NCBI GenBank assembly: GCA_045614145.1
Contig: JAZLCH010000006.1
Span: 2,421 to 66,420 of the forward strand
Direction of reading: 5' to 3'
Source of the DNA: Candidatus Enterousia sp.
GTDB taxonomy: Bacteria; Pseudomonadota; Alphaproteobacteria; Rs-D84
Length of the DNA: 64,000 nt
The notes beneath the pieces were generated by a model that made no database searches, had not been told where the DNA came from, and saw nothing but the letters and a program-made list of their open reading frames with translations. The position numbers and the translations under genes are program-made. Shown piece after piece: positions 13,664-27,015 of the stretch; within the stretch, counting starts at the first letter, position 1; every line of letters starts with the position of its first letter.

Positions 13664-14665
13664 ATGAAGCGTATATTTTTTAGATTAATTGCCCTGTTTT
13701 TTCCTACGCGTAAAATGCGCGCACGCGTCAGACATCTTGGCGATGATCAACACGCACTGCTAATACAATCTGGTATCGACATGGTAAAAGAAACCATGGA
13801 TTTTTCTAAACTGCCACCTGCGCATGGTTATTTGCGACTGACCCAACAGATGAATATAAAATTGTTGGCGGCGTTCACGAAATTTTGCGACCTGAACGGC
13901 ATTGAAAATTTTTTGATTGGCGGGGCAATTATTGGCAAGCTGCGTCATAATGGGCTGATTCCGTGGGATGATGATATTGATATTGCAATTCCTGATCCGC
14001 ATTGGCACAAACTGGTGGATATATTGCGCAATACAGAACTGGGGGATGATTACTGCATATATTTTGGGACACGTTGGAATATGTTAAAGATATGTCACAT
14101 GCCAACCGGATTGTTTGTTGATATTTTTAGATTTTCATTGCTAGATTCTGATATAACCTTTGATAATCATCAGGAATATACTAACCGCAAACACGCGTAT
14201 TCTGTTGCACATACCCAGATGGGATTGAACCTGTATCGTAAACACGCTGTTGATATATTCCCTGGGGATACATTTGAACAAAAAAACGCAAAGATTGACA
14301 AGATATTGGAACATGTACGCAAGGAAGAAGACCTGTTTAATAAACATGTACTTGCCGGGCAACAACCGCAGACAGGATGTGGGTTGGCACACTTTTCTGC
14401 AGACAGCAAACCAAATGAAGTGTTCCCGTACGCAGTAATTTACCCACTGAAAAAAATTGAATTCGAAGGTTATGAATTTTCATTCCCAAATAATCTGGAC
14501 GATTATGCATATATTGTATGGGGTGATATATGGTGCTTCCCAGAACAGCTGGTCATGCACCAAAGCGGAAAACCAGATATAAAAAAGTATTTGATAATGC
14601 GGCACTTCCTTGAAACACCAGATGAAACGATATTTTCAAGCATGTTCAAAACAAAGGGCAAGTAA
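13664..14665 (+). CDS. LicD-family protein (phosphocholine/phospho-alcohol transferase-like, nucleotidyltransferase fold)
   Basis: The LicD hallmark LIPWDDDIDIAIPD is present. The ORF-track start at 13514 is probably an upstream extension; MKRIFF at 13664 is likelier. Confidence 0.55.
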   Translation: MKRIFFRLIALFFPTRKMRARVRHLGDDQHALLIQSGIDMVKETMDFSKLPPAHGYLRLTQQMNIKLLAAFTKFCDLNGIENFLIGGAIIGKLRHNGLIPWDDDIDIAIPDPHWHKLVDILRNTELGDDYCIYFGTRWNMLKICHMPTGLFVDIFRFSLLDSDITFDNHQEYTNRKHAYSVAHTQMGLNLYRKHAVDIFPGDTFEQKNAKIDKILEHVRKEEDLFNKHVLAGQQPQTGCGLAHFSADSKPNEVFPYAVIYPLKKIEFEGYEFSFPNNLDDYAYIVWGDIWCFPEQLVMHQSGKPDIKKYLIMRHFLETPDETIFSSMFKTKGK

Positions 14666-14666
14666 G

Positions 14667-15092
14667 ATGACGGTCGGCGTTGTTGTTGGAACGTTTGATA
14701 TGTTCCATATCGGACATTTGAAGCTGTTGTTGAATGCAATTCAAAATTGTGATTTTTTGATTGCAGGTGTTAACACAGACGCGGTTGTTTTACGTGATAA
14801 AAATAAAAAAACAGTAATTCCTGAACAAGATAGATTAGAAATCATACGCAGTATTTTTTGCGTGTCTGAGGCACACCTGGTTACAGACAATGCAGTTCAA
14901 TTTATTTCTGATTTGTTGTCCCAAGGCAAAAAGATAGACTTCTATTTTCGTGGCAACGAACCCGAGAAACCACATATCTTGGTCGAGAATAAAAAAATCA
15001 CTGACATGGGGGTGACTGTTGTTCAGTTTCCATATACTAAATCTATTTCATCGTCAAAAATTCGCGAAAGGTTGAATAATGAAAAACGCTAA
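14667..15092 (+). CDS. Cytidylyltransferase (TagD/LicC-like HIGH-motif nucleotidyltransferase)
   Basis: The GTFDMFHIGHLKLL HxGH motif is present. The ATG at 14667 follows an RBS-like aaaggg. The stop overlaps the start of the downstream GT2. Confidence 0.6.
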   Translation: MTVGVVVGTFDMFHIGHLKLLLNAIQNCDFLIAGVNTDAVVLRDKNKKTVIPEQDRLEIIRSIFCVSEAHLVTDNAVQFISDLLSQGKKIDFYFRGNEPEKPHILVENKKITDMGVTVVQFPYTKSISSSKIRERLNNEKR

Positions 15093-15975
15093 GATTTCGA
15101 TTATTACAATTTGTTACAACGCAGACAATTTAGAACGCACATGCGAAAGTATTGTAACACAGGATCGTGATGATTTTGAATGGGTCGTTATCGATGGTGG
15201 CAGTTCAGATGAACATCAGAAAATTTTTGATAAATATAAATCGCGAATGGATTATTTTGTGTCAGAACCTGACAAGGGTATTTATGACGCAATGAACAAA
15301 GGTATTTTAGCTGCAACTGGCGAATACGTGATATTTATGAATGCCGGTGATTCATTCTATGATACAAATATTCTTAGCCACGTTATGCGCTTTATGGAGA
15401 CAGATGATTCAGATATTATTTTTGGCGCAGCAAAATGTGATAATGATACAAAAATTGAAAAGCGTGTTATTAGGGTTTTTGACAAAGAAATAAATGATAT
15501 TTTCTGGTTTGATCGCTGCCCACCGCATCAAGCCATGTTTTATAAACGATCTTTGTTTAGTAATGTTGGTATGTACAGGATGGATTATCGTATTATGAGC
15601 GATAAAGTTCAGAATATGCGATTTTATTACGCGGGCGCAAAATATAAATTTATAGACCGTATTATAGCAAATTTTGACACATCTGGTGTGTCAAATAACC
15701 CCAAACAAAAATGTCGTCAATATGTTGAAAGGGCACTGTGGCGGCATGAATTTTATCCCGATTTAATGACGCGTTTTAATGTGTATAATATGACAATATC
15801 TAACGTATGGTATCGACTATTGCGGATTATTTTTTGTTTTTGGCGCAGCAAAAGGAAACATTATGCATTCAGAAGTAAACATCTGACCAGAATCATCAAA
15901 GAAACAAAAAATATATCCAGAAAAGAGATGCATGAAACATTGCGCGAATATTCGCATATATTAAAACCACGGTAA
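15079..15975 (+). CDS. Glycosyltransferase family 2
   Basis: GT2 N-terminus ISIITICYNADN..VIDGGSSD with a DxD-type motif is present. Confidence 0.6.
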   Translation: MKNAKISIITICYNADNLERTCESIVTQDRDDFEWVVIDGGSSDEHQKIFDKYKSRMDYFVSEPDKGIYDAMNKGILAATGEYVIFMNAGDSFYDTNILSHVMRFMETDDSDIIFGAAKCDNDTKIEKRVIRVFDKEINDIFWFDRCPPHQAMFYKRSLFSNVGMYRMDYRIMSDKVQNMRFYYAGAKYKFIDRIIANFDTSGVSNNPKQKCRQYVERALWRHEFYPDLMTRFNVYNMTISNVWYRLLRIIFCFWRSKRKHYAFRSKHLTRIIKETKNISRKEMHETLREYSHILKPR

Positions 15976-15992
15976 AACCGTGGTTTTTTATT
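15967..15992. terminator. Intrinsic terminator after the GT2 gene
   Basis: Hairpin ccacggt-aaa-accgtgg is followed by a T-tract. Confidence 0.55.
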
Positions 15993-16614
15993 CAGACGGG
16001 CCGCACACTTCCCACAATACGCTAAAATCGCTGTTACATATAACACATAAAGTTGTTTGATTTGATGCGCCACCTACTTTTTGTACAATTCTGCCTGTAG
16101 ATGATTCTACAATTGCGGTCAGATTAGTCGTGTATTCTGTAAACTGCATCTTTATAGGGAACGATAAATAATTTTTCCCATTGTTACATCCAACAACTCC
16201 CCCTTGTTCAACCCAGCCTGATTTATATTTTCTATACCAAGTATAGTTATTAGCCGCGGTTGGCATTTGCCATGCAATCACATAATCTGTGCCAGACATA
16301 TCTGTAACACTGTCAGCACGTGCCATGGTGGTGCCGCCCAGGGTTGAACCATCGTGAACACGTATTGTGTTACAATCTGTATCCATTGTAATTTCTCCGC
16401 ATACGCCGGTATAGTTATCGTTTTCGGTACTGTTGCCACGTTTAATCTTTAATTTGCGATTGTTATGCGTATTGTTCAGATATTTTTCAATATTAAATCC
16501 CGTCAGGCGACGACACATTTCACATGTTATGTCGCGGCGTTCTTGCGGGCTGATTGATTCTTCTATAAAACGCGTAAGAGTGTTCAATAAAACCGTTTTA
16601 TCATGTGCAGTCAT
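15988..16614 (-). CDS. Hypothetical protein (208 aa, Cys-containing)
   Basis: The ORF lies downstream of the guanylate-kinase-like gene on the same strand. No motif was recognised. Confidence 0.35.
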   Translation of the reverse strand: MTAHDKTVLLNTLTRFIEESISPQERRDITCEMCRRLTGFNIEKYLNNTHNNRKLKIKRGNSTENDNYTGVCGEITMDTDCNTIRVHDGSTLGGTTMARADSVTDMSGTDYVIAWQMPTAANNYTWYRKYKSGWVEQGGVVGCNNGKNYLSFPIKMQFTEYTTNLTAIVESSTGRIVQKVGGASNQTTLCVICNSDFSVLWEVCGPSE

Positions 16615-24488: not shown

Positions 24489-24510
24489 TTAATATCAAAA
24501 ACCGCCGTTT
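24489..24510 (-). terminator. Intrinsic terminator downstream of the EF-hand protein gene
   Basis: Hairpin aaccgcc-gtttt-ggcggtt is present. Confidence 0.5.
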
Positions 24511-24524
24511 TGGCGGTTTTCATA

Positions 24525-25037
24525 TTATTCTGTTACCACAGGCATGGGCTGAGGCATTTCTGGCGCCGCAGGCTGGGGCATGTTTGATTTATTTTTACGA
24601 AACATTTTACGTGCCGCACGAAATTCTTTACGATTCACACAACCATCTTTATCAATGTCCATAACAGGTAACATTTCTGCCATCTTTGGGCATTTTACAA
24701 CCAAGCAGCCATTTTCAAATTCTGGACGTGGTGCCATTTTGCCACGTTTGTTCATCGGACAAAATTTGGCAGCAGCAAACCCCATGGCAAATATAATCAA
24801 AAACACAATTAATTTTTTTACAAAACGACCAAAAGTACATTTTTTGTGTCCGCAATGTCCATGACATGCACAACCGTGCGAACAGGCGCATTCATGCGAA
24901 CAGGCACATTCATGCGTCTCAACAACAGCAACCGGCGCAACTTTCTTTACAGCAGCTTTTTTAACAACGGGTTTAGAAATTGTTTTTTTTGCAACAGTTT
25001 TTTTTGTTGCAGGTTTTTTATTCGATTTTTCTGCCAT
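24525..25037 (-). CDS. Membrane protein with a Lys/Ala-rich histone-H1-like N-terminus, a Cys/His-rich cluster and a canonical EF-hand loop
   Basis: The N-terminus KKPATKKTVAKKTISKPVVKKAAVKK is followed by HECACSHECACSHGCACHGHCGH, then a TM helix IVFLIIFAMGFAAA, then DIDKDGCVNRKE, which matches DxDxDGxVxxxE. Confidence 0.45.
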   Translation of the reverse strand: MAEKSNKKPATKKTVAKKTISKPVVKKAAVKKVAPVAVVETHECACSHECACSHGCACHGHCGHKKCTFGRFVKKLIVFLIIFAMGFAAAKFCPMNKRGKMAPRPEFENGCLVVKCPKMAEMLPVMDIDKDGCVNRKEFRAARKMFRKNKSNMPQPAAPEMPQPMPVVTE

Positions 25038-25103
25038 TTGTCCTTCCTTTTTTGTTTGACGGTTTCATTTTATAAAAAAGATAAAAATATGTAAAGAAAA
25101 AAT

Positions 25104-25131
25104 TCAAAAAAAATCCCCCAAATTTGGGGGA
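25104..25131 (-). terminator. hupB terminator
   Basis: Hairpin tccccca-aattt-ggggga is followed by a T-tract on the minus strand. Confidence 0.55.
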
Positions 25132-25601: not shown

Positions 25602-26078
25602 TTATCGATAAACTGCACTGGCACGTACTGCCTGTCTGCCGGGCGTATTGTTATCGCAAAGCACCCAATTTCCAGGCGCACCCACCAAATGTACCGTACG
25701 GTAATAATTCGGCGTTGCCATCAACATTGAAATAATCACAACAGCCCAAAACAGTAACTTGGTAAATGCCCATGGGGTCTTGAACGCATCACGAACAAAT
25801 TTATCTTTTAACAAATTTTGATACAGCGCCCAGCCCCATGTAAACAGCAAAATAATTAATGAAAAAAAGAACCCGATTATCAGCGGACGTTTAAACATTG
25901 CAAAACCAACCGACAACCCGTCCCACAGACCACTGGCCGCGGGACAAACATATAACGCGTTCGGGGCATTTACAGCCGATACAGCAACCGTTTCATTCGG
26001 CCCAAGATTTATATTAAAGGCCGTCATTAATATGATTGATGTCAATAAAATAATGGCAAACATCATTGTTGGTTTCAT
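25602..26078 (-). CDS. Integral membrane protein (about 4 TM helices), function unknown
   Basis: Hydrophobic segments span the protein. No motif was recognised. Confidence 0.4.
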   Translation of the reverse strand: MKPTMMFAIILLTSIILMTAFNINLGPNETVAVSAVNAPNALYVCPAASGLWDGLSVGFAMFKRPLIIGFFFSLIILLFTWGWALYQNLLKDKFVRDAFKTPWAFTKLLFWAVVIISMLMATPNYYRTVHLVGAPGNWVLCDNNTPGRQAVRASAVYR

Positions 26079-26163: not shown

Positions 26164-27015
26164 ATGTTTGCATGCAAATCGCGTATTATTGTCGGACTGA
26201 CCACATTTTATAGTGAAAACCTGATGATATCTTTATCGGGATTGGCACGGTTGGGCAAACGCGCAATATTAATTATTCATAATGATAATCCGCAGACCAA
26301 GGTTACAAAACGCGACGTGCGTCGTATGGGGTATGACGGCGATGTACATATCATAAATTCAGGGTATAATGTTGGTTTGCTGCGCGCACGTCTGGCAATT
26401 ATAGACTATGTAAAGAAACACAGAATCAACTCAGATTGGTTTGTGTTTGTGAATGACGATGATGTTTTATTAAATCTGGACATTCCGAATGTTGGGCAAA
26501 ATCATTTTGCAATTATACAAAACATGGCGGTTGTGCGGACGCGCTTGATTGACGTTTTGCGAATTATAAAGAATCCGGATAATTTTACAATTGATGACGA
26601 AAACATATATATGGTGCGCCCACATATTGGAATTATTGGCACACTGGTGCGTATGGATTATATTTTTAAGCTGGCTGATATATTACAGTCTGCATCGGTG
26701 GCGATATCAGACATTGATGAATCCCTGGGGTTCCGTCCACCTGTTGATATGATGATGTGGTCTGCACTAAATATTATTGCACGGAACGACAATGATACAA
26801 TCAGTCCCATATATATGGACACTGTCAATTATATTGCAATAGATATCGATAACGTTACCACGAAATATGGCATGTTGCTTCAGCCAGAAAAAAATCCACA
26901 CCAGCAAATTATGTCCGCAATTGCAAAGTACGATACGGCGATACATGCCGCATTGACAAATAATGAATCTGCAGCCAAGGCCGCCCCGGCGGGGCAAGAA
27001 TTAGACGCAGAATAA
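26164..27015 (+). CDS. Hypothetical protein (283 aa)
   Basis: The ORF has a DDD segment, VFVNDDDVL, that might be a DxD motif of a nucleotide-sugar transferase. This is weak. Confidence 0.3.
   Translation: MFACKSRIIVGLTTFYSENLMISLSGLARLGKRAILIIHNDNPQTKVTKRDVRRMGYDGDVHIINSGYNVGLLRARLAIIDYVKKHRINSDWFVFVNDDDVLLNLDIPNVGQNHFAIIQNMAVVRTRLIDVLRIIKNPDNFTIDDENIYMVRPHIGIIGTLVRMDYIFKLADILQSASVAISDIDESLGFRPPVDMMMWSALNIIARNDNDTISPIYMDTVNYIAIDIDNVTTKYGMLLQPEKNPHQQIMSAIAKYDTAIHAALTNNESAAKAAPAGQELDAE

Follow-up and report, generated by a model that had tools for sequence, protein, structure and literature searches.

Within the window (the whole stretch of DNA that was analyzed, 64,000 nucleotides from a Candidatus Enterousia genome), a short open reading frame (ORF) on the minus strand joins a lysine-rich tail, a cysteine cluster, a transmembrane (TM) helix, and an EF-hand in one predicted protein. 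This raises the questions of whether such a combination is the product of a genuine, inherited gene and, if so, what an EF-hand tethered to a membrane in this manner might do.

A genuine gene in a family specific to Enterousia and its relatives

The ORF is accompanied by its own expression signals and by a terminator-like hairpin, as follows.

24525..25037, minus strand: ORF with ATG start, 170 aa, and TAA stop (ORF listing); founding member, in the window, of an unannotated family
25041..25095, minus strand: the gene's own expression signals, a sigma-70-like promoter plus a Shine-Dalgarno sequence (promoter scan and sequence reading)
25095..25067, minus strand: sigma-70-like promoter match TTTACA-17-TAAAAT, 10/12 matches (promoter scan)
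25049..25041, minus strand: Shine-Dalgarno sequence AAGGAAGGA (sequence reading)
24520..24498, minus strand: intrinsic-terminator-like hairpin and T-run directly 3' of the stop codon (scan)

The Shine-Dalgarno-like sequence, as read from the DNA, lies 3 nt 5' of the ATG, and the hairpin at 24498..24520 has a stem of 10 bp, of which 5 are GC pairs (the scan lists it on the plus strand, and the stem is palindromic). Homologs of the 170-aa protein number 111 (E values from 5e-97 to 1.5e-17), relatives occur in 89 GTDB species genomes, and the median dN/dS of the family is 0.29; given these values, together with the promoter-like site, Shine-Dalgarno sequence, and terminator, the ORF is a genuine gene under purifying selection. 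Two overlapping plus-strand ORFs, at 24580..24864 and 24846..25094, are mirror artifacts of this minus-strand gene.

All of the named homologs come from gut MAGs labeled Candidatus Enterousia, Alphaproteobacteria, or Rickettsiales. Rs-D84, the order of Enterousia, has genomes smaller than about 1 Mb, and its members have lost most biosynthetic pathways, leaving roughly 800 to 1200 genes (PMC12306168); the lineage is regarded as dependent on partners, and its genomes contain many membrane proteins without an explanation, for which a role in cell-cell interaction has been proposed (PMC12306168). The host lineage is diderm, with LpxI, an OMP beta-barrel, and AsmA encoded beside homologs. The protein family is specific to genome-reduced gut alphaproteobacteria around Candidatus Enterousia (Rs-D84), and its retention under such strong gene loss argues for an important role in the partner-dependent gut lifestyle.

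The protein falls outside every Pfam, NCBIfam, PHROG, and PADLOC family, which agrees with the view of the initial annotation that its domain combination is not a described one; with no PHROG or PADLOC match at an E value of ≤0.01, a phage or defense origin was rejected. That annotation had also called the protein chimeric. Its four-part architecture is genuine and conserved, but it is ancestral to a whole family (171 signature-positive proteins; 89 species genomes) and is not the outcome of a recent event. The family signatures are a Cys at position 7 of the EF loop, a second invariant Cys in an upstream F-x-N-G-C hairpin, and a G-x3-A motif in the TM helix, and the combined signature F-x-N-G-C ... 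D-x-[DN]-x-[DN]-G-C-[VI]-x3-E would enable annotators to name a set of proteins now carried as "hypothetical."

A minimal four-part protein

The sequence features that had been described initially were all found where they had been placed, in a gene that lies on the minus strand, and the protein can be divided as follows.

24915..25037, minus strand: disordered polybasic tail of KKxxx pentapeptide repeats, residues 1 to 41 (pLDDT < 50, K/R periodicity of 5)
24837..24914, minus strand: juxtamembrane Cys cluster, residues 42 to 67 (core C50-x-C52-x3-C56-x-C58, plus C62 and C67); putative metal-thiolate site
24877..24916, minus strand: 18-bp in-frame tandem duplication doubling HECACS (TRF: period 18, 2.2 copies, 95% match)
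24762..24836, minus strand: single TM helix, residues 68 to 92 (AF2 helix 68-92 with pLDDT of about 90; hydropathy)
24690..24725, minus strand: conserved beta-hairpin PEFENGCLVVKC, residues 105 to 116, turning at N-G, with C111 invariant and C116-P117 near-invariant; predicted to be extracytoplasmic
24585..24689, minus strand: single EF-hand, residues 117 to 151 (helix E 117-126, loop 127-138, helix F 136-151)
24528..24584, minus strand: variable Pro/Met-rich C-terminal tail, residues 152 to 170 (dN/dS of 0.78)

Selection is uneven along the chain, with dN/dS values of 0.31 in both the N-terminal tail and the Cys cluster, 0.21 in the TM helix, 0.22 in the hairpin/EF-hand module, and 0.78 in the C-terminal tail. 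The Pro/Met-rich character of the terminus, noted at the outset, was recovered at residues 151 to 170, and the last residues of the chain are a conserved V-[AT]-E-COOH, the conservation of E170 being 90% or more. Distant members of the family have the K-rich tail and Cys cluster shortened or lost and always keep the EF-hand module, which identifies the extracytoplasmic module as the essential part. At about 170 aa, with one EF-hand, a TM helix, a Cys cluster, and a repeat tail, the protein constitutes a minimal dissectable system.

A single EF-hand preceded by a beta-hairpin

The EF loop (residues 127 to 138, DIDKDGCVNRKE) follows the pattern D1, D/N3, D/N5, G6, C7, V/I8, E12. A scan with PROSITE PS00018 (tested as D-{W}-[DNS]-{ILVFYW}-[DENSTG]-[DNQGHRK]-{GP}-[LIVMC]-[DENQSTAGC]-x(2)-[DE]-[LIVMFYW]) matched DIDKDGCVNRKEF at 24621..24659, its sole match over the six reading frames of the window, and the pattern arose in 6 of 200,000 shuffles of the 170-aa protein. 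It is kept in 110 of the 111 homologs, with all liganding positions canonical, so the EF-hand loop recognized from the first reading stands. Against the window protein, Pfam EF-hand_1 (PF00036) scores 18.2 bits (E = 0.0017), below its gathering threshold of 25.4 bits, a value that is exceeded by the two-module relatives P0254, P0246, and P0112 (27.2, 30.6, and 32.4 bits, respectively). A family profile searched against PDB finds Entamoeba histolytica CaBP1 and calmodulins (E of about 2e-7) over profile positions 116 to 155.

The AF2 model places the hairpin (DSSP strands at 107-108 and 111-112) ahead of a helix-loop-helix (helices 117-126 and 136-151) with a pLDDT of 76 to 85, and the equivalent module of P0112 is modeled at 91 to 96. 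The second module of P0112 has lower confidence because MAFFT aligned all single-module sequences to module 1. Fold searches returned weak matches, most though not all of them EF-hand proteins, and Foldseek of the full model against PDB gave matches at E > 2 only. The EF-hand is therefore identified at the level of sequence, profile, and predicted fold, and we expect that it binds Ca2+.

EF-hands normally work in pairs, and there is one EF-hand per chain here, although tandem-module relatives exist; the partner may be the upstream hairpin or a second chain. In the AF2 model of P0112, the hairpin strand apparently pairs with the EF-loop strand inside one module, such that a module may be self-sufficient and a dimer unneeded. 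The protein shares with the EF-hand superfamily (PS00018 and PF00036, including bacterial "single-handed" forms) the canonical D-x-[DN]-x-[DN]-G-x-[VI]-x-x-x-E loop and two flanking helices, but it differs in having a single EF-hand per chain and an F-x-N-G-C beta-hairpin before the loop in place of a second helix-loop-helix. The loop-7 Cys is invariant in this family, whereas it is present in 3% of loops (38/1191) among unrelated EF-hand matches, and the upstream hairpin Cys is found in 171/171 family members. The assertion that bacterial EF-hands are rare does not hold for extracytoplasmic ones: the profile search yielded 6405 matches at an E value of ≤1e-3, and many of these proteins have EF-hand repeats and a signal peptide. 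Excalibur (DxDxDGxxCE) and dockerin were each rejected, since those motifs place the Cys elsewhere and have another residue at loop position 12; Dockerin_1 gave a subthreshold match in one relative only.

Membrane topology

As had been proposed, there is a single TM helix: the protein has one hydrophobic span, at about residues 72 to 92 (Kyte-Doolittle maximum of 2.43), that coincides with the AF2 helix at 68-92. Within this helix, F83 and G86 are invariant and F87, A88, and A90 are near-invariant, so that G86-x3-A90 makes a small-xxx-small motif; G-x3-small occurs in 156 of the 171 family members. The N side of the helix carries a net charge of about +16 and the C side one of about +3, and in 160/171 members the N side exceeds the C side in positive charge. 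The EF-hand module also occurs in relatives with other N termini, namely, P0254, in which two modules come straight after a cleavable-looking signal peptide, and P0246, in which two modules follow an N-terminal anchor. Because of the charge balance and the signal-peptide relatives carrying the EF-hand module, the EF-hand is probably outside the cytoplasm, and the Cys cluster and Lys-rich KKxxx tail are therefore predicted to be inside; the N terminus would be in and the C terminus out. Dx[DN]xDG motifs are, in general, biased toward periplasmic or secreted proteins (PMC3123361).

The Cys cluster and polybasic tail, predicted to be cytoplasmic

Residues 42 to 64 (HECACSHECACSHGCACHGHCGH) had been described as a Cys/His metal array. 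The Cys part of this description holds, with C52 and C56 invariant and C50 and C58 at least 90% conserved, but His is unconserved (a mean of 2 per N-terminal region). Across homologs, the N side averages 6.9 Cys, and some members keep merely 0 to 3 Cys in the cluster. The 18-bp duplication is recent, since P0001, a 94%-identical homolog, lacks it (an alignment gap). The cluster is predicted to be cytoplasmic and may bind metal. The first suggestion, that the protein has to do with metal or calcium at the membrane, is still plausible.

The tail (residues 7 to 32 are KKPATKKTVAKKTISKPVVKKAAVKK) is likewise predicted to be cytoplasmic over residues 1 to 41 and, across the family, consists of 29% K, 19% A, 15% V, 12% T, and 9% P. 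Its K/R residues are spaced at lags of 5 and 10 at 2.4 and 2.2 times expectation, respectively, with lags of 2, 7, and 12 nearly absent, and its coding sequence has a 15-bp DNA periodicity at 24984..25019. In the K-rich tail, the pentapeptide KKxxx is truly repeated. The initial label of "H1-like" was apt for its Lys/Ala-rich composition and not for its ancestry: Pfam HC2 (PF07382) reaches 14.8 bits (E = 0.031) against a gathering threshold of 40 bits, and the H1/HC2 resemblance is compositional only. In mycobacterial Ku and HupB, DNA is bound by Lys-rich pentapeptide repeats of the PAKKA type (PMC3553676, PMC5676037), and the tail might similarly bind a polyanion.

Gene neighborhood

Genes within about 8 kb encode HU, GT4, CysRS, TrcR, RpoD, AlaRS, and an FAD oxidoreductase, and the GC content of the gene is like that of its surroundings. 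HU is directly upstream in 35 of 80 species loci (36/86 of all loci), lies within about 2.6 kb in 6 more, and is found directly upstream in the distant member P0211 as well; about half of the loci have no HU nearby. The two genes are separated in the window by the following feature.

25114..25131, minus strand: terminator hairpin of the upstream HU gene, splitting HU and the focal gene into two transcription units (scan)

A hairpin and T-run lie between HU and the gene in all 36 adjacent loci (spacer of <400 nt; median dG of -14.3 kcal/mol), and so an operon with HU, with a nucleoid function read from cotranscription, was rejected. Given these terminators and the absence of HU near about half of the loci, the link may reflect inherited gene order only, and we treat HU adjacency as weak synteny evidence. 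An anti-sigma factor (ZAS) was likewise rejected by inspection of the neighbor list and sequence, there being no adjacent ECF sigma and no HxxxCxxC; RpoD, about 5 kb off, is a housekeeping gene.

A tentative model and its alternatives

We tentatively read the protein as a calcium-loaded bitopic inner-membrane coupler or anchor that is probably dimeric and binds a polyanion through its polybasic tail, an interpretation in which our confidence falls somewhat short of even. The extracytoplasmic module of about 45 residues (beta-hairpin and one EF-hand) would bind Ca2+ in the periplasm, and the invariant pair C111 and C133 would staple or complete it, possibly as a disulfide. Two chains would pair by way of their EF-hand modules and G-x3-A TM helices, bringing together the cytoplasmic juxtamembrane CxC clusters in a possible metal-thiolate site, while the disordered KKxxx tails would bind DNA, RNA, or the acidic inner leaflet; in this way, envelope calcium or redox state might be coupled to a cytoplasmic polyanion-binding tail, a logic akin to that of the nonhomologous STIM1 and ToxR/CadC. 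Dimerization is proposed because EF-hands are normally paired, tandem-module relatives exist, and G86-x3-A90 is invariant or near-invariant, and polyanion binding is proposed on the basis of the KKxxx periodicity, the Ku/HupB PAKKA precedent, and the HU gene directly upstream.

Calcium is high in the gut lumen, and a micromolar site would therefore be permanently occupied, which favors a structural role over sensing. The protein could thus be a structural envelope protein, in which the Ca2+ site stabilizes the fold; the module contacts peptidoglycan, the outer membrane, or an envelope protein; and the polybasic tail and Cys cluster are a topogenic or lipid-binding anchor only, with no signal passed. 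We regard this joint reading as possible though doubtful. Besides the abundance of gut calcium, it draws on the EF-hand module being the one part that every distant member retains (the N-terminal parts vary or are missing), on the conserved C-terminal V-[AT]-E, which could be a docking motif, on the structural nature of most extracytoplasmic Dx[DN]xDG sites (PMC3123361), and on the cell-cell interaction proposed for Rs-D84 membrane proteins (PMC12306168). However, conservation of the TM helix is as strong as that of the module (dN/dS of 0.21, with F83 and G86 invariant), which exceeds the need of a passive anchor, and a 45-residue tail with conserved K spacing, together with a conserved Cys cluster, goes beyond the positive-inside rule. 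Were the EF-hand merely a structural calcium site, the finding would be that of a routine new envelope-protein family.

Bacterial calcium signaling is poorly understood, and few EF-hand proteins have been studied. Those closest in kind are the periplasmic EF-hand calcium sensors EfhP of Pseudomonas aeruginosa (PA4107; Kd of 13.7 uM) (PMC9132961) and CaBP of Caulobacter vibrioides (PMC13171946), which likewise are small bacterial proteins with extracytoplasmic EF-hands, an N-terminal hydrophobic targeting segment, and a proposed role in calcium signaling. EfhP, however, has two EF-hands and is predicted to have a signal peptide (a transmembrane domain in an earlier report), three EF-hand motifs are predicted for CaBP, which has a Sec signal peptide, and both, going by their descriptions, are set apart by being without the polybasic tail, Cys cluster, hairpin Cys pair, and retained conserved TM helix.

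A stronger version of the coupler, to which we give little credence, is STIM-like or ToxR-like: periplasmic Ca2+ (or redox, via the Cys pair) would control module dimerization and, by way of the GxxxA helix and a thiolate cluster shared in the cytoplasm, the hold of the tail on the nucleoid or RNA at the membrane. The protein would then be a one-protein calcium-to-chromosome link kept in bacteria that have fewer than 1000 genes. The comparison with STIM1 and ToxR/CadC is a functional analogy drawn from architecture only, all being single-pass proteins with a noncytoplasmic sensing domain and a cytoplasmic effector part. STIM1 has one canonical EF-hand with a nonbinding partner element and a polybasic Lys-rich end that binds acidic lipid, and the sensing domain of ToxR/CadC carries a Cys pair, but there is no homology, the protein contains no SAM, coiled-coil, or wHTH domain, and its orientation is opposite to that of STIM1.

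Improbable, too, is a membrane-anchored, metallothionein-like metal handler, in which (CxC)n binds Cu(I), Zn, or Cd and the EF-hand is an accessory. The 6 to 8 Cys within about 20 residues, with their invariant CxC..CxC core, are what such a protein would have; several members (e.g., P0109, P0119, P0121, and P0151) have extra CxC clusters just past the TM helix and at their C termini, and the plasticity in cluster copy number indicated by the 18-bp duplication is typical of metal-buffering repeats. Nevertheless, His is unconserved, and the cluster can dwindle to 0 to 3 Cys in members that always have the EF-hand module. Searches of Pfam and NCBIfam gave no metallothionein, HMA, or bufferin family match, the likeness to metallothioneins being one of high CxC content only, and no MNIO, DUF2063, transporter, or metal-regulator gene occurs within about 8 kb. 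A TM helix, a short Cys segment, and EF-hands are also combined in chimeras of Buf_EGKCG with EF-hand_5 in MNIO/bufferin clusters (PMC12452194), but those run in the order TM helix, Cys motif, and two EF-hands, all periplasmic, with an EGKCG motif and an adjacent MNIO enzyme, whereas here the CxC cluster, predicted to be cytoplasmic, comes before the TM helix, and there is one EF-hand. A bufferin/MNIO link was rejected, as there is neither an EGKCG in the protein nor an MNIO (DUF692) gene nearby.

Finally, the suggestion of host mimicry, by which a histone H1-like domain and a eukaryotic EF-hand would form a host-mimicking or eukaryote-derived chimera, is scarcely credible: in PDB, eukaryotic EF-hand proteins match the sequence best, Pfam HC2 matches weakly, and the lineage is regarded as dependent on partners (PMC12306168), but the PDB matches span a generic 30-residue EF-hand that thousands of bacterial proteins match equally, the HC2 score is compositional and far under threshold, the GC content is unremarkable, the neighbors are housekeeping genes in conserved synteny, and a tail that is predicted to be cytoplasmic in a membrane-anchored protein would have no host exposure.

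The tail can be likened to the disordered, pentapeptide-type Lys-rich repeats of chlamydial Hc2, mycobacterial HupB, Ku (PAKKA), and HBHA, again in composition only. The repeats of Hc2, HupB, and Ku bind DNA, and those of HBHA bind heparan sulfate (PMC3553676, PMC5676037, PMC10665949); in contrast to these tails, that of the present family is N-terminal, about 45 aa long, and membrane-tethered.

A conserved gene in Rs-D84 genomes

The gene encoding the membrane-anchored, single-EF-hand protein is real and conserved, and every element listed for it in the initial annotation (KA-rich tail, Cys/His array, transmembrane [TM] span, EF-loop and Pro/Met end) is present in the translation. It appears to carry its own expression signals, namely, a predicted promoter, a Shine-Dalgarno-like AAGGAAGGA read 3 nt ahead of the ATG, and a hairpin with T-run, as follows.

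25095..25067, minus strand: sigma-70-like promoter match
24525..25037, minus strand: focal ORF, ATG start, 170 aa (ORF listing)
Residues 1-41: K/A-rich N-terminal segment, read from the translation
Residues 42-64: Cys/His-containing segment HECACSHECACSHGCACHGHCGH, read from the translation
Residues ~72-92: single hydrophobic span
Residues 127-138: EF-hand loop DIDKDGCVNRKE, read from the translation
C terminus: Pro/Met-rich end
24520..24498: hairpin and T-run directly 3' of the stop codon

Searching 5.8 billion proteins returned 111 homologs (110-216 aa; E values of 5e-97 to 1.5e-17), all unnamed or "hypothetical," those with names coming from Alphaproteobacteria MAGs. When a single genome was scanned for each GTDB species, relatives appeared in 89 species genomes. 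Their records carry the titles Candidatus Enterousia, Alphaproteobacteria bacterium or Rickettsiales bacterium, and the sources that these titles name include ruminants, chicken, human (Hadza) and other gut samples. GTDB places Enterousia in order Rs-D84, whose members have genomes of ~0.75-1.0 Mb, are missing most biosynthetic pathways and are thought to be partner-dependent (PMC12306168). One contig titled Bacteroides fragilis (CAVGNU010000004.1, locus L082) encodes a family member and an AlaRS 81% identical to that of the window; mis-binning of an Rs-D84 contig is the probable explanation.

Compared codon by codon, 84 copies of the gene yield median dN/dS values of 0.29 for the whole gene, 0.21 for the TM helix, 0.22 for the EF-hand module, 0.31 for both the K-rich tail and the Cys cluster, and 0.78 for the last 24 residues. 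The C-terminal V-[AT]-E (residues 168-170; 24528..24536, minus strand) is conserved (E170 in at least 90%), the tail before it being near-neutral by the latter value; this motif may serve in docking or processing.

A divergent EF-hand behind a predicted cysteine-bearing hairpin

PROSITE pattern PS00018 matches only the focal protein across the six reading frames of the 64-kb window and arises in just 6 of 200,000 shuffles of that protein, and the pattern is therefore not a product of chance. Across 110 homologs, the loop proposed in the initial annotation is retained, with the following residues by position.

Residues at EF-loop positions in 110 homologs
1: D (100%)
3: D/N
5: D/N
6: G (109/110)
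7: C (100%)
8: V/I
9: S/T/N/D
12: E (100%)
13: F/Y/L

Judged from sequence, the calcium-ligand set is fully canonical. AlphaFold2 predicts a helix (117-126), loop and second helix (136-151) here, with pLDDT of 76-85, preceded by a tight beta-hairpin at P-x-F-x-N-G-C-L-V-V-K-C-P, in which C111 is invariant and which a short linker joins to the TM helix.

The window protein scores 18.2 bits, below the Pfam EF-hand_1 cut-off of 25.4, and the relatives P0254, P0246 and P0112, natural tandem duplications of the hairpin and EF-hand module, exceed the Pfam EF-hand cut-off. Compared with PDB sequences, the family profile matches Entamoeba CaBP1 and calmodulins over the helix-loop-helix (E ~2e-7). Searched against 1.84 billion representative proteins, a profile built from the TM helix and the C-terminal region matches more distant full-length family members and, by the EF-hand part only, generic multi-EF-hand secreted proteins. 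We therefore regard the C-terminal module as a true, divergent EF-hand. Two features in combination set the family apart: the Cys at loop position 7, which only 38 of 1191 loops of unrelated EF-hand matches share, and the hairpin Cys, found in 171/171 family members.

The protein belongs to the EF-hand superfamily at the levels of motif, profile and predicted fold, and no curated family in Pfam, NCBIfam, PHROG or PADLOC fits it. It differs from Buf_EGKCG|EF-hand_5 chimeras in domain order, motif, EF-hand number and gene neighbourhood. Compact and experimentally tractable, it is lineage-defining for an uncultured, genome-reduced gut clade.

N-terminal region and membrane topology

Predicted to be disordered (pLDDT <50; AlphaFold2), the N-terminal tail was initially described as KA-rich, which holds for residues 1-41; beyond this, it is a KKxxx pentapeptide repeat, with K/R spaced at period 5 (2.4x expectation at lag 5, 2.2x at lag 10) and depleted at lags 2, 7 and 12 (0.04-0.27x). 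Lys-rich pentapeptide repeats of mycobacterial Ku and HupB bind DNA (PMC3553676, PMC5676037). As for the proposed Cys/His cluster, the family alignment retains a Cys core (C50-x-C52-x3-C56-x-C58, with C52 and C56 invariant), and its histidine component did not survive, the N-terminal histidines being unconserved (mean of 2). The doubled HECACS is an 18-bp in-frame tandem duplication (24877..24916) absent from the 94%-identical homolog P0001, which has one unit fewer, indicating that cluster length changes by replication slippage.

Conservation of the TM helix is unusually high: F83 and G86 are invariant, F87, A88 and A90 nearly so, and a G-x3-A small-xxx-small motif is found in 156/171 family members. 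Net charge is ~+16 on its N side and ~+3 on its C side, the N side being the more positive in 160/171 members, and no signal peptide precedes the highly charged 67-residue N-terminal region. Under the established positive-inside rule, translocation of these residues is implausible. P0254 has a cleavable-looking signal peptide directly followed by two modules, with neither TM helix nor tail, such that the module also exists as a predicted soluble periplasmic protein; P0246 has a short N-terminal anchor, then two modules. There is a strong bias of Dx[DN]xDG sites toward periplasmic or secreted proteins (PMC3123361), and genes for LpxI, OMP beta-barrels and AsmA show that the lineage has a periplasm. 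From these features together, we infer that the tail and Cys cluster are cytoplasmic and the hairpin and EF-hand periplasmic.

Gene neighbourhood

The gene directly upstream, also on the minus strand, encodes HU (Pfam E value of 2.6e-33); on the downstream side are genes for a GT4 glycosyltransferase and CysRS, and RpoD, TrcR and AlaRS are nearby. The block of AlaRS, a GT2-like ORF, a 158-aa membrane protein, HU and the focal gene is widely recurrent. HU is directly upstream in 35/80 species loci (36/86 of all loci) and within ~2.6 kb in 6 more; the distant member P0211 also has HU directly upstream. Because a hairpin and T-run separates the two genes in 36/36 adjacent loci and about half of family loci have a different context, we treat this adjacency as weak evidence.

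The 158-aa predicted multi-pass protein (25602..26078, minus strand) has no Pfam or NCBIfam match and retains synteny with HU and the focal gene in 38/86 loci (45-85% identity); a distant locus, L087, has a 169-aa ORF at the equivalent position. Between it and AlaRS is a conserved 283-aa ORF (26164..27015, plus strand), unannotated apart from a sub-threshold GT2 match (E value of 9.5e-4).

Possible function

We tentatively favor, at somewhat less than even confidence, a bitopic coupler loaded with calcium, in which Ca2+ would be bound by the periplasmic EF-hand and the module stabilised by the invariant Cys pair. Two chains would associate, as suggested by the principle that EF-hands pair, by relatives with natural tandem modules and by the conserved GxxxA motif of the helix; in the cytoplasm, their CxC clusters and polybasic tails might then act jointly on a polyanion or the inner leaflet. 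Periplasmic EF-hand sensors are known in Pseudomonas (EfhP; Kd of 13.7 uM; PMC9132961) and Caulobacter (PMC13171946), and the coupler logic resembles that of STIM1 and ToxR/CadC by analogy only. Three points count against it: the site may be saturated by gut calcium, the model of P0112 hints at pairing of the EF loop with the hairpin rather than with a second chain, and distant members have lost the tail and Cys cluster.

A purely structural envelope protein is on the unlikely side, and a membrane metallothionein-like metal handler is quite improbable. Host mimicry, raised in the initial annotation, we consider very improbable.

Elsewhere in the window

A 208-aa ORF (15988..16614, minus strand) in a lower-GC stretch (14001-16000; GC of 0.365) matches Pfam Mtd_N, the major tropism determinant N-terminal domain, above cut-off (E value of 1.4e-8; 34.9 bits). 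Its product may be what a diversity-generating retroelement targets, or else a receptor-binding protein of phage origin.
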